NCBI GenBank assembly: GCA_046861655.1
Contig: JBHIAI010000049.1
Span: 1 to 12,625 of the forward strand
Direction of reading: 5' to 3'
Source: Fidelibacterota bacterium
GTDB lineage: Bacteria; Fidelibacterota; Marinisomatia; Marinisomatales; S15-B10
DNA length: 12,625 nucleotides
Shown here piece by piece: positions 3,648-8,932 of this stretch (positions are counted from its first letter, which is position 1; each line of letters opens with the position of its first letter). The notes below the pieces were generated by a model. It was not told the origin of the DNA, ran no database searches, and saw only the letters and a program-made list of their open reading frames with translations. The position numbers and the translations under genes are program-made.

Positions 3648-4475
3648 TTAGTTCAAGGAGGCCTGCCTCCACAGTGCCGTAATCCCCGTGACCGATGCAA
3701 GCCACGCGGCAACCTCGGGAAGACTGGGATTTCCGTTCCAACCGAAAAGCCCGGCGGCGATGGATCCCAGGAGCCCTTTTTCGTGCAACAAGGGATAATT
3801 GCCATTCGGGAGCCTGGGTGGGTTGATGTCCCAGAGGGCACCCGCGTAAGGGATCAAACCAGCTTCCTCAAATTCGTGGATTCCGTGGGCGATGAGACCG
3901 GCGGCCAGAAGGATCAGCAAGATAGAGCTGACATCGAAAAACGTTTTCAAGGGGAGCTTTCTGCCCTGGGAGAATATGAGATAGCCGATGACAACGGCGG
4001 CCAGACTGCCGGTTACTGAGGTGGCCAGGGACAGTCCTCCCTGGTTTATGGTCACGCCGTAGAGGAACAAGACCGTTTCGACCCCTTCCCTCAATACTGC
4101 CACGAACGCCAGGGCGAAGATCCCCACTCCAGCTCCCAGGTTTCCCGTAATGGCTGAACGGGCCCGGTTTTCGATATGGCGGGAAACGTTTTTGTTTCTG
4201 GCCATCCAGACAATCATGGTGCTCAGGATAACGGCGGCGAGGATCATGACGGTCCCCTCAAAAATCTCTTCCCCCCTGCCGGTGAGCCCTCCCGCCACCA
4301 ACTGAATGATCAGAGCGGCGAACACACTGGCCGCCAGGGCGGCTGCGACGCCATTCCACAGCTTCGGCAGCAATTCAGTCCTCTCCGATTTGACCAGAAA
4401 GGTATAGACAATACCCACGACCAGGGCTGCTTCCAATGTCTCGCGAAACGTGATCAGGAATTCAGCAGTGCCCAT
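3648..4475 (-). CDS. FTR1/EfeU-family (OFeT) iron permease
   Basis: Two RExxE motifs (FRETLEA, LREGVET), about seven hydrophobic segments and a C-terminal LFGW..PS motif. AAGGAG SD upstream. Lies downstream of fur. Confidence 0.95.
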   Translation of the reverse strand: MGTAEFLITFRETLEAALVVGIVYTFLVKSERTELLPKLWNGVAAALAASVFAALIIQLVAGGLTGRGEEIFEGTVMILAAVILSTMIVWMARNKNVSRHIENRARSAITGNLGAGVGIFALAFVAVLREGVETVLFLYGVTINQGGLSLATSVTGSLAAVVIGYLIFSQGRKLPLKTFFDVSSILLILLAAGLIAHGIHEFEEAGLIPYAGALWDINPPRLPNGNYPLLHEKGLLGSIAAGLFGWNGNPSLPEVAAWLASVTGITALWRQASLN

Positions 4476-4510
4476 TCAAGATCTCTCCTTCTTAGCTTGA
4501 TGTATTCATC

Positions 4511-4612
4511 CACCACAGAAATCACAGAGAGTTCATCAGGATACTGGATTCCGGATACTTGATCCTTGCCATTCTGTACTTGTTGTTCTCTGTGAGTTCA
4601 GTGTCTCCATGG
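4511..4612. repeat. Imperfect inverted repeat with 9-nt periodic arms enclosing a 4x heptamer tandem
   Basis: CACAGAAATCACAGAGA (4514-4530) and TCTCTGTGAGTTCAGTG (4587-4603) are complementary at 15 of 17 positions. Between them lie GATACTG GATTCCG GATACTT GATCCTT (4540-4567). Confidence 0.7.
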
Positions 4613-4688
4613 GGAACAGTCGAGTTAGTTCTCGTCCAGCAGGGTTCCCAGCCGACCTGGAGGTTCCAGATCCTTGCAGCCGGGAGAA

Positions 4689-5126
4689 TCACCGATTCCT
4701 CTGGCACTCCTCGCAAAGGCCAAACAGCTGGTGTACATGACGGACCAGCTTGTAACGGTATCGGCTGGAGATCTTCTCCTGAAGTTTTTCGATTTCGGGA
4801 CTCAAGAATTCTTCGATTCTTCCACACCGGATACAGATCAGGTGATCGTGGTGGGAACAGTCCAGCCAGTGTTCATAACGCCACTTGCCGTCTCCGATGT
4901 CCATCCGGCGAACCAGGTCATGTTTATGGAGGATATCCATGGTGCGGTAGACCGTGGCCCGGGACACATGAACATTCCTGTCCCGGAGAGTGAGGTAGAT
5001 TTCCTCCGCCTCCCGGTGTTGATCGGAGGCACAGACTTCCTTGAACACCTCATGCCGCTGAGGGGTGAACTTGAGATTCTCCTCCTTCAGCACTTCCCTG
5101 AATTTTTCGAGCTCAAGTTCGGTCAT
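4689..5126 (-). CDS. fur: Fur-family transcriptional repressor, probably iron-responsive Fur
   Basis: Motifs TPQR, SRATVYRT, HHDHLICIRCG and GLCEEC. Upstream of an FTR1 gene with a Fur-box-like site. Zur, Mur or PerR specificity is not excluded from protein sequence alone. Confidence 0.93.
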   Translation of the reverse strand: MTELELEKFREVLKEENLKFTPQRHEVFKEVCASDQHREAEEIYLTLRDRNVHVSRATVYRTMDILHKHDLVRRMDIGDGKWRYEHWLDCSHHDHLICIRCGRIEEFLSPEIEKLQEKISSRYRYKLVRHVHQLFGLCEECQRNR

Positions 5127-5834: not shown

Positions 5835-6308
5835 ATGCTTATTGATCACATTATTCAGATTCGAGGGGAAGCGGCCCGTCCCCAAATGCTAAGAGCTTTT
5901 ACCGACATTTTCGGGTGGGACCTTGAGAAGCAGGACTTTGGGTTTGGAACCTCGATTAATTTCGTCAAGGGAGTTTTCGGAGAGCTGGCCTCCACGGTAG
6001 AAGGCCCGGTAAGGGACTCGGATCCTTCCTACATTACCTCCATCGTTTCCCTCCTTTCGGCCGCGGGGGAGCTGCAGGGTGTCCGAGATGAAGAGTTCTT
6101 CATGGATGCCGAAGCTCTTGCGAGTCTCCCCTTTGAATTCAAGGCAGATTTCCTCCATCCCCTTCTGCTTGAGCACTGGTGTTCGGGGTTTCTTGCCTGG
6201 TTGGGACAGAGATATGTGGCCATGGACAGTGAGTGTTTTGAGGGGTTAAGGAAGCAGTTCGAAAAGGGTGGGATATCCATCCAGGTCATTGAACCCTTTG
6301 CGACTTAG
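5835..6308 (+). CDS. Hypothetical protein (157 aa, acidic)
   Basis: Starts 17 nt after the DUF1232 stop with AGGGA upstream. Natural globular composition. No motif recognised. Confidence 0.7.
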   Translation: MLIDHIIQIRGEAARPQMLRAFTDIFGWDLEKQDFGFGTSINFVKGVFGELASTVEGPVRDSDPSYITSIVSLLSAAGELQGVRDEEFFMDAEALASLPFEFKADFLHPLLLEHWCSGFLAWLGQRYVAMDSECFEGLRKQFEKGGISIQVIEPFAT

Positions 6309-6411
6309 CGTCCCTCCCCCGGATCATCCAATCGCTGGCGGTTTCCCCGGCGATCATCCCCTTCGAAATCCTTGATGACGCCCCGGGGTTTCAATCCGCG
6401 ATAGCACCTGA

Positions 6412-6440
6412 TTGACAACCCAGGTCATTTTTCCTATCTT
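6412..6440 (+). promoter_or_regulatory. Near-consensus sigma70 promoter
   Basis: TTGACA (6412-6417), 17-nt spacer, TATCTT (6435-6440). The implied +1 falls in the G run near 6446-6447. Confidence 0.8.
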
Positions 6441-6445
6441 GAAGG

Positions 6446-6590
6446 GGGGTACGGTTTGACGGGTGAGTCGGCCGTGGGTCTCTTGTCTGGGGGTTCCTGT
6501 AGGCGGACACAGCCTTCGTTGGTTCGCATCCTCCACACCCGTCCATGTGGTGAGGACGCAAAATCGTATCTTGCCGCGAAACCGCGGCCA
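6446..6590 (+). ncRNA. Candidate structured leader or small RNA of unknown family
   Basis: Begins at the predicted +1. Closing stem 6446-6457/6561-6572, perfect 8-bp pairing 6458-6465/6536-6543, two internal hairpins, and a GC hairpin at 6573-6588. Confidence 0.35.
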
Positions 6591-6630
6591 GTCTTGTTTA
6601 TGCGATCGTTAACGAGCCAAAGGAGCAAAC

Positions 6631-7173
6631 ATGATGAACAGGGTGCTGGCAGTCCCGTTAATCCTGATAATCTCCGGGATGGGCGGGAAAACAATCTGGG
6701 GGTTCCAGGGGGAGTTGGATGAACCTCTCCGGCCCCTTAAGCCGCTTCTTGAAAAGACCTGGAGAGGTACCACGAGTCAGTCTACTCCGGATAAACCCGT
6801 GCACGATGTGTCACGGTGGGAAAGAGTTCTGAACGGTAAAGCCGTCCGGATACTCCATTCTGTGAACGACGGGGAATACGGGGGTGAAACCATGATCATC
6901 TGGGATGCCCAAAAAGAAAGTCTCGTATTCTTCTATTTCACCACCGCCGGGTTCTACACTCACGGCACGATGGAGATCGAGGATGGAAGATTCACCAGCC
7001 ATGAGTTTGTATCGGGGAACCAGGACGGCATCACAGAAGTCAGGGCAGTCGGAACCCTTCTCCCTGACGGCAGGCTTCACAGCAAATCCCAGTATTTCCA
7101 GGATGGCAAATGGGTTGACGGTCACGAATTCATGTACGTGGAAGACCCTTCCGCTCAGGTACTGTTCCGGTGA
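6631..7173 (+). CDS. Exported hypothetical protein, probable lipocalin/DUF1579-like beta-barrel
   Basis: AAGGAG SD, signal-like N-terminus (MMNRVLAVPLILIISG), PLLEKTWRG resembling the calycin GxW start, and repeated beta-hairpin patterning. The fold is inferred. Confidence 0.8.
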   Translation: MMNRVLAVPLILIISGMGGKTIWGFQGELDEPLRPLKPLLEKTWRGTTSQSTPDKPVHDVSRWERVLNGKAVRILHSVNDGEYGGETMIIWDAQKESLVFFYFTTAGFYTHGTMEIEDGRFTSHEFVSGNQDGITEVRAVGTLLPDGRLHSKSQYFQDGKWVDGHEFMYVEDPSAQVLFR

Positions 7174-8125: not shown

Positions 8126-8932
8126 TTATCTGTACCAATCGTACACAAACCTGTGGTGTACAGGCAGTAATCTCTGCAGGAGGTCATAGAATCTTGTGTC
8201 CCATCCGATCAGAATTCGTGTCTTGTTCTTTTTGATACCATCCAGGATTGAATGAGCAGCCTGGGCGGGCGTTATCTTCGCCATGGCATCAAACTGGTCG
8301 ATGAAATCCGACCTGGAAGCTACCCCGAGTCCGGAGATGAATTTTCCACTCTTCGCGATGTCCGTCTTGATGAATCCCGGATGGACGCAGGACACACCGA
8401 CGGAGGTATTCCGGAGTTCGTGATTGAGAGATTCGGTAAAGCCTCTGATGGCGAATTTTGTGGCACTGTACGCCGATTGGTGAGGAGGGGCCACGAGTCC
8501 AAACAGGCTGGACATGTTCACAACATGCGCTTCACCTTCTTTTTTCAGGTGCGGGAGGAAAACCTTGGTACCGTACACAACCCCCCAGAAATTGATTTCC
8601 ATGATCCTCCGGAAATCTTGAAGCGTCATCTCCTCCACGGTAGCTGACATGGCGATTCCGGCGTTATTGACAAGAACATGAATATGGTGGTGGGTTTCCA
8701 TTACGTCCTCGGCGAATTGCTCCATCGCGGTCTTATCCGACACATCTACCTGGTGGGATGAGACGTCCACACCCGAAGCCGCGATGGCCTTTTCGGTCTG
8801 GGATAGCTTCGCTACATCCACATCACAGATTGCCAGCGTGCACCCTTCCCGGGCGAGAGCCAGGGAGAGGGCGCGGCCGATTCCCGAGCCCGCCCCGGTG
8901 ACCACTGCGATCCGGTTTTGAAAACTACGCAT
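8126..8932 (-). CDS. Classical SDR oxidoreductase, probably NAD(H)-dependent
   Basis: TGAGSGIG, acidic CDVD after beta2, NNAG, MSS, YSATK and PGFIKT. The start overlaps the upstream stop by 8 nt. Confidence 0.94.
   Translation of the reverse strand: MRSFQNRIAVVTGAGSGIGRALSLALAREGCTLAICDVDVAKLSQTEKAIAASGVDVSSHQVDVSDKTAMEQFAEDVMETHHHIHVLVNNAGIAMSATVEEMTLQDFRRIMEINFWGVVYGTKVFLPHLKKEGEAHVVNMSSLFGLVAPPHQSAYSATKFAIRGFTESLNHELRNTSVGVSCVHPGFIKTDIAKSGKFISGLGVASRSDFIDQFDAMAKITPAQAAHSILDGIKKNKTRILIGWDTRFYDLLQRLLPVHHRFVYDWYR

Follow-up and report, generated by a model that had tools for sequence, protein, structure and literature searches.

Bacterial tyrosyl-tRNA synthetase (TyrRS) recognizes its tRNA through the identity elements G1-C72, A73 and the GUA anticodon. 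Outside translation, the closest described system is tRNA-Other of B. cereus, described as an element that resembles a tRNA and is part of a larger regulatory RNA (PMC3399842). Judged from sequence comparison, the locus analyzed here is on balance best explained as a decayed second copy of a tRNA-Tyr gene with an intact transcription unit, probably a relic. It lies in a 12,625-nt window, the whole of contig C86 of genome G000 (2.06 Mb, 92.8% complete), in a 322-nt gap between the genes for a 157-aa and a 180-aa protein. The gap has a GC content of 57%, with equally GC-rich sequence in 9/134 gaps of that length in the genome, and the stretch containing the candidate was found in hydrothermal-vent metagenome runs of one study. 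Elsewhere in the window, a Fur-family regulator adjoins an FTR1 iron permease at 3648-5126, both on the minus strand. The parts of the element are as follows.

6412-6440, plus strand: predicted sigma-70-type promoter, TTGACA-17-TATCTT, with the -35 box at 6412-6417 and the -10 box at 6435-6440 (10/12 consensus match)
Near 6446-6447, plus strand: start of transcription predicted from the promoter position
6446-6459, plus strand: 14-nt 5′ leader; 6446-6457 pair with the trailer (helix P1) and 6458-6459 can pair with positions 74 and 73, giving a longer acceptor stem
6460-6545, plus strand: putative degenerate tRNA-Tyr body, 86 nt from position 1 to A76
6460-6466, plus strand: acceptor 5′ strand, pairing with 6535-6541 (6/7 Watson-Crick)
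6467-6487, plus strand: D-arm remnant with G15, G18 and G19 in register and A14 and A21 lost
6488-6504, plus strand: destroyed anticodon arm with 1/5 pairs (G-U) and a loop 1/7 identical to Tyr
6505-6517, plus strand: long V arm of Tyr type, ending in C48 and 11/13 identical to the G465 tRNA-Tyr
6518-6534, plus strand: T arm with a loop 6/7 identical to Tyr (A58 changed to C) and 3/5 stem pairs
6535-6545, plus strand: acceptor 3′ strand (6535-6541), discriminator U73 (6542) and encoded CCA (6543-6545)
6546-6572, plus strand: trailer, whose alternative partners are the leader (P1), the tRNA 3′ end (second hairpin) and the terminator 5′ strand
6546-6555/6569-6578, plus strand: possible 10-bp antiterminator
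6573-6600, plus strand: GC hairpin resembling an intrinsic terminator, with a broken U-rich tail (z -2.7)
6631-7173, plus strand: gene for the 180-aa protein, with a hydrophobic N-terminus suggestive of export; DUF1579/lipocalin-like by language-model features

The earlier note had placed the strongest promoter of the window ahead of this region, and 6412-6440 was indeed the best (10/12) of the four consensus sites in the window, a scan which by itself is weak evidence as shuffled sequence yields 6.4 sites. In the whole genome, 49/105 such sites are intergenic, 6412-6440 included. In contigs from three vent runs of the one study, a C>A variant at 6438 changes the -10 box to TATATT, closer to consensus, and the same contigs carry no variant inside 6446-6630; a relative in run X4 has zero cover over 6332-6886 and is uninformative on presence or absence. 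Transcription from this site would give an RNA of about 145-150 nt starting at about 6446. To read the region as a promoter-to-terminator non-coding unit of about 145 nt was fair, but the earlier note overlooked the tRNA body at its core. A coding remnant was ruled out, the region being non-coding and a VRILH match a coincidence. The start of the 322-nt gap is partly common to G001, a genome of the same genus, and at 6320-6365, 3′ of the 157-aa gene, an 8-bp hairpin is flanked by a short direct repeat.

Descent of 6460-6545 from a tRNA-Tyr is very probable. In a cmscan of 6300-6700, a class II tRNA model, that of tRNA-Sec, matched 6459-6542 with a weak score (13.7 bits, E 7.2), and a BLAST search of 167 genomes of another phylum gave four matches, the sole non-coding one being the V and T arms of a tRNA-Tyr (G465). 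Against 40 tRNAs assembled without reference to the candidate, comprising those of the genome itself and those of L289 and L290 (family tRNA-Tyr genes having been retrieved by an anticodon that the candidate lacks), the two Tyr genes came first both by local z (12.3 and 9.7, next 4.6) and by global z (7.0 and 6.9, next 4.1). The similarity from the V arm to the CCA was reached by 0/2000 shuffles for each of three Tyr genes, and that of the 5′ half was weak, being reached by 7, 33 and 642 of 2000 shuffles, respectively. A Tyr covariance model (R2), the training set of which includes the G465 Tyr, itself selected for matching the candidate, gave a full-length match at 6460-6544, which ranked first of the 38 matches in the window at 18.5 bits and E 0.0042, ahead of a second at 10.7 bits. 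A V/T-arm pattern derived from the candidate matched 91 of the 228 other genomes of the order, with 88 tRNA-Tyr, 3 tRNA-Ser and no control matches; within the family, the V/T pattern found Tyr in 9/14 genomes and a too-strict pattern in only 2/14. BLAST of the 86-mer against five whole genomes did not recover the Tyr genes of G002 and G003, and MAFFT alignment A2 was left out because it misplaced the 5′ half.

The register of the body points the same way. With T54 at 6523 and A76 at 6545, the T-loop lies at the canonical 22 nt before A76, in a full-length body with a paired acceptor and a 3′ NCCA. The combination of a T-loop in register, CCA and a 6-bp acceptor, with thresholds fixed after the candidate was known, occurred seven times in 4.1 Mb (three real tRNAs, the candidate and three stretches outside intergenic DNA) and in 2/50,000 shuffles; relaxed thresholds gave 44 other non-coding matches, and without the CCA the pattern was non-selective. 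The sequence is closer to Tyr than to other isotypes or shuffles, with a weak signal at genome scale: a profile of 13 Tyr genes of the order ranked the candidate sixth (E 0.5), below two non-tRNA stretches, the Tyr covariance model gave E 0.66, and neither ARAGORN at default settings nor the Rfam tRNA model at E 10 detected it. These genome-wide values of 0.5-0.7 and the silence of the standard tRNA finders would suit a chance resemblance of an unrelated GC-rich leader or sRNA to a tRNA. This is nonetheless very unlikely, since the 185 nt in question had been singled out from 2 Mb in advance, since sequence, register, length, acceptor pairing and CCA all agree, and since Thr and Gly profiles do not find the candidate.

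As a tRNA the body is severely damaged. The residues kept belong to the elbow and the 3′ end (G15, G18, G19, C48, G53, U54, U55, C56, G57, C61 and CCA). The D stem has one Watson-Crick and two G-U pairs of four, and the anticodon arm is no more similar to Tyr than shuffles are, with no GUA in register; a CTGTA at 6497-6501 lacks a surrounding stem. A functional tRNA-Tyr was rejected on each count: the 5-bp anticodon stem and the 7-nt loop bearing GUA are absent, C1-G72 and U73 stand in place of G1-C72 and A73, and the T arm has 3/5 pairs and C58. The candidate is not the cell's tyrosine tRNA. The G000 assembly holds no tRNA-Tyr gene, and Gly(TCC) and Thr(GGT) are missing too. The working tRNA-Tyr most likely sits in an unassembled Thr-Tyr-Gly-Thr-tuf cluster: contig C146 ends 121 nt after Thr(TGT), and spacers to Tyr in the family measure 137-156 nt. 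An identical 4.2-kb rpsL-rpsG-fusA-tuf block occurs on C43 (11910-16106) and C48 (11145-15341). The duplication is probably a misjoin at the tuf repeat, and, as the upstream block is identical at both tuf copies, Tyr, Gly(TCC) and Thr(GGT) appear to have been lost from the assembly when the repeat was collapsed. The candidate should not be counted as the assembly's missing tRNA-Tyr.

The 3′ strand of the acceptor stem is identical in 13/13 distinct Tyr genes of the order; in the candidate, C1-G72 and U5-A68 are changed on both sides and A7·A66 is broken, so that 6/7 pairs are kept despite five changes (P 0.012 under random substitution, a value for one stem of five that assumes the lineage's Tyr as ancestor). 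In the fold of the 86-mer, the acceptor pair probability was 0.92-1.0. A CCA is encoded in the candidate and in the G465 Tyr, in 5/35 tRNA genes of G000 and in 0/26 Tyr genes of the order. Because the encoded CCA is unlike all 26 of the latter, the true ancestor may be other than the lineage's own Tyr gene, and a foreign ancestor could account for part of the acceptor differences.

Pairing outside the body was also assessed, and every strand named in the earlier note was found in the sequence at the position given there. Its 12-bp helix between 6446-6457 and 6561-6572 (P1) held up in the predicted fold with pair probabilities of 0.63-0.99, P1 and the terminator hairpin dominating the predicted ensemble. 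Among 1000 shuffles, helices of 12 bp containing 8 or more Watson-Crick pairs formed anywhere in 64, at the 5′ end in 11 and between both ends in 0. A start-anchored helix of this kind was present at 3/128 intergenic promoter-like sites of G000, and of 13 GC hairpins with a T-rich tail only the candidate's own was adjoined by one. P1 was moreover the longest leader-trailer helix among the 32 own tRNA genes compared (12 bp, next 10). Together with the pairing of positions -1 and -2 to 73 and 74, it would probably leave the CCA end hidden. Other elements of the original structure fared differently. The inner arm (6465-6472/6518-6525 and 6484-6489/6504-6509) had a pair probability of 0.0. The strands of the 8-bp helix offered as a pseudoknot or mutually exclusive alternative are present and do compete with the second hairpin (predicted probabilities 0.37 and about 0.5, the former helix arising in 78/1000 shuffles), but the helix is better read as the acceptor stem; likewise, the hairpin loop CCCGTCCA has the sequence reported and is reread as the tRNA 3′ end with its CCA. 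The remark that the 6526-6559 stem pairs better on the minus strand was borne out (z -3.4 vs -1.5).

The proposal of a new cis-regulatory RNA family was not supported. The folding energy of 6446-6630 lay inside the shuffled range (z -0.37), which the earlier note had itself named as counting against the proposal, and that of 6446-6590 gave z -1.2 to -1.5, whereas the genome's FMN riboswitch and 6S RNA score -2.35 and -3.6, respectively. The window itself contains an FMN riboswitch (132-307, 105 bits), which precedes the riboflavin operon and has a terminator occupying 286-307. No Rfam family reached its cut-off at the candidate; a likeness to c-di-GMP-I found no Rfam support. Leaders of homologs of the 6631 gene were compared at 65 loci (35 + 30, including the duplicates L014/L158 and L007/L176, none from L162, and among the 30 two loci of the unpublished genomes G478 and G535, which enter this count alone), and none resembled the candidate; four of the 65 exceeded the 95th shuffle percentile, as expected by chance. 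No riboswitch or attenuator motif conserved before related genes was found in these 65 loci or in a covariance-model scan of 74 loci. An attenuator or riboswitch-like switch for the 180-aa gene, in which 6546-6555 would pair either in the second hairpin or in an antiterminator engaging the 3′ strand of P1 and the 5′ strand of the terminator, is very improbable. In energy the antiterminator fold does come to within 3 kcal/mol of the terminated one (-57.6 vs -60.5 kcal/mol), and for the 6446-6580 intermediate it is the most stable structure predicted. Yet half of its pairs are G-U, alternatives come cheaply here (8 helices of at least 8 bp in 6446-6572 vs 4.6 in shuffles), the downstream gene suggests no ligand, homologous genes lack a like leader, and tRNA ancestry already explains the core.

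Searches for the RNA itself gave no homolog. BLAST found none in 60 relatives or in 383 other genomes of the phylum, where six short matches looked coding, and a single-sequence covariance model of the candidate (R1) found none in 100 relatives, the own genome or 74 viral loci. Run on 74 homolog and neighbor loci, R1 gave a best E of 0.078, for a terminator look-alike in coding DNA. A pattern of acceptor, T-loop and CCA matched once in 383 genomes, in a normal tRNA-Pro; a metagenome pattern scan returned 97 stretches, of which 80 were examined and none was homologous; viral pattern scans returned 0, 74, 0, 11, 0 and 0 stretches, the 11 being ordinary tRNAs; and phage and plasmid BLAST gave only fragments at E 3-9. 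A literature search, with most subscription papers outside its reach, returned nothing on the candidate element. The degenerate Tyr unit has thus been seen in one species so far, and this lack of conservation in relatives fits a relic.

The 180-aa protein has no Pfam match and 1120 relatives, with homologs in 26/383 other genomes of the phylum and in 36/151 genomes of the phylum of G389 (presumably KSB1). Its tree, which leaves out the loci of G478 and G535, suggests that the gene was acquired separately by horizontal transfer; this origin is not taken as established (p-AU 0.175). In G001 (93% complete), an epimerase-like gene directly follows the 157-aa gene, and promoter, RNA and 180-aa gene are all absent from the corresponding site. 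The absence of the whole block there, a best tree that does not place the protein within the clade formed by its 25 own-phylum homologs, and the restriction of strong similarity to the stretch from V arm to CCA would suit an integration scar, in which only about 6502-6545 is a displaced tRNA-Tyr fragment, left behind by an island that delivered the 180-aa gene, with the pairing on the 5′ side a coincidence. We consider this the least probable account. The 3′ acceptor strand differs from the lineage Tyr at 3/7 positions, two of them matched in the 5′ strand, and the length is the canonical 86 nt; the promoter ends 19 nt before position 1; inspection of the window ORFs revealed no integrase; and the AU test leaves an own-phylum origin of the protein unrejected at the p value above. 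At L139 (1330-1404), a homolog of the 180-aa gene directly follows an intact tRNA-Met gene and its terminator, in the same layout as the candidate. Separately, the short leader of a pirin-like gene (L032 about 1200-1277, and L034) carries a G-rich motif common to G000 and G001; a shared motif between the candidate and this pirin-gene leader on C10 was rejected, as the hairpin is not kept in G001.

The kept acceptor pairing and the rarity of P1 among the genome's own controls speak against pure decay. The two acceptor double changes and the 12-bp P1 hint at selection, although the folding energy is no better than that of shuffles. One form that this could take is an exapted mimic, derived from tRNA-Tyr and kept for its acceptor stem, T-loop, CCA and G18/G19. 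Outside decoding, it could form the structural core of a regulatory RNA, act as a decoy for proteins that bind or cut tRNAs, or be a substrate of RNase P or the CCA enzyme, in which last case processing would set the level of the downstream mRNA. The double changes against a 3′ strand otherwise invariant in the order, the survival of the elbow and 3′ residues beside an anticodon arm at shuffle level, the strong predicted promoter, the rare P1 and the precedent of tRNA-Other (PMC3399842) make this worth considering. It is still rather unlikely: A58 and two T-stem pairs are lost, the T arm is absent from the predicted fold (pair probability 0.0), with a 4-bp hairpin at 6470-6480 predicted instead of the D arm, the 86-mer folds at z -0.24 vs -2.58 for the family Tyr, and no search returned a homolog. 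Also unlikely is a tRNA-Tyr copy turned into an anticodon-less "top-half" RNA, acting as a decoy or processing-dependent switch for the downstream exported protein. In that case, the acceptor would have re-paired to C1-G72/U73, away from TyrRS identity, the leader-trailer helix would control processing to a free CCA end, and the locus would represent a recently formed bacterial non-coding RNA with a tRNA gene as its source.

The preferred reading remains the decayed gene copy. Such a unit would retain its promoter, the 14-nt leader, the 86-nt body ending in CCA, the trailer and the terminator. With no anticodon arm, only 3/5 T-stem pairs and A58 replaced, its RNA would be unable to decode on the ribosome. 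Bacterial TyrRS should fail to recognize it, since none of G1-C72, A73 and the GUA anticodon is preserved. Because P1 and the pairing between trailer and 3′ end would bury the CCA and impede regular processing, the most likely role of the RNA is that of an inert leader. The imperfect terminator would leak, possibly aided by the 10-bp antiterminator, and read-through would supply the 180-aa gene, for which the window scan found no other promoter-like site; the retention of the promoter may be explained most simply by this read-through. The locus would then be a tRNA gene worn beyond the reach of ARAGORN and Rfam with its promoter and terminator kept, a kind of relic that can pass for a new structured RNA. 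If, on the other hand, the acceptor compensation and P1 are selected, it would be a rare and testable case of a bacterial tRNA becoming a non-decoding RNA.

Other regions of the genome also contain structured or repeated non-coding sequences. On the minus strand of C41 (about 69175-69310, L269), a promoter heads a rod-like fold of about 130 nt, closed by an 18-bp helix, that reaches about -85 kcal/mol with its trailer and has no Rfam match; it is a better candidate for a novel ncRNA than 6446-6630. On the minus strand of C112 (about 8750-8830, L270), a promoter precedes a 76-nt hairpin, closed by a 15-bp helix and ending in a U run, which lies ahead of a small gene and for which Rfam gives nothing above noise. 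Intergenic repeats with terminal inverted repeats occur on C43, C44, C46, C147, C171, C13 and, just upstream of selC, C126; this family, MITE- or REP-like, carries a T-loop-like motif near its 3′ end. A second intergenic repeat of 66 nt has four near-identical copies, on C78, C85, C101 and C112.

Several known RNA classes were considered and rejected. For tRNA-Sec, judged by a UCA anticodon, a 13-bp branch and the Rfam cut-off, the 13.7 bits fall below the cut-off of 47, the type was the lowest-scoring, and the genome has its own selC on C126. For tmRNA, judged by a tRNA-like domain with G3-U70 and a tag reading frame, neither ARAGORN nor Rfam made a call at the candidate, a tag-like AKSYLAA lacks a stop, and a tmRNA-like acceptor from 6444 would start only 3 nt after the -10 box; the genome's own tmRNA lies on C159. 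The candidate's 127-nt branched fold differs from 6S RNA, a rod of about 180 nt with a central bubble, which was found on C66 (45.4 bits). RNase P RNA and part of SRP RNA were likewise located elsewhere in G000. A bacterial Y RNA (YrlA) was discounted as the 92.8% complete genome gave no Ro60/TROVE match.

The candidate resembles tRNA-Tyr(GUA) from its own family and order (L289, L290, L292-L321) and of G465 (L275) in its 86-nt length with CCA, long V arm, T-loop, D-loop G18/G19 and acceptor geometry. It differs in lacking an anticodon arm, in having C1-G72 rather than G1-C72 and U73 rather than A73, in the loss of A58 with two T-stem mismatches, and in encoding the CCA, which the genes of the order do not; it also stands alone, whereas the family tRNA-Tyr is in the Thr-Tyr-Gly-Thr cluster. 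With tRNA-Pro it shares an acceptor beginning CGGG with C1-G72, and CUGGGGG at 6487-6493 resembles the Pro(GGG) loop, notably that of viral locus L285. Pro ancestry was rejected, with a local z of 4.6 vs 12.3 for Tyr and a loop motif that lacks a stem and occurs in 30% of shuffles.

The allo-tRNAs, as described in PMC5389517 and PMC7609411, are similar in their long V arm, U73 and a 12-bp branch that can be drawn as 8/4, and the stem-breaking changes are like those of the inactive allo-tRNA pseudogenes of the UAU group. In contrast to the allo-tRNAs, the candidate has neither a long D stem with a tetraloop nor an anticodon stem, no toxin-antitoxin or transposon neighbor was seen, and its best match is canonical Tyr. 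Five candidate motifs were absent from the sequence table of PMC5389517. Judged by an 8/4 or 9/3 paired branch, a long D stem with tetraloop and a long anticodon stem, an allo-tRNA was rejected, the 8/4 drawing leaving 2/4 T pairs and an A·A mismatch with no such D or anticodon stem (PMC5389517). The nearest described case is B. cereus tRNA-Other (PMC3399842), the candidate itself being built like a pseudo-tRNA. Both appear to be tRNA-derived and non-translational, to lie in a longer transcript and to occur in a narrow group; they differ in the parent tRNA and in that the transcript of the candidate, of about 145 nt, is predicted, with a leader and trailer that pair with each other.
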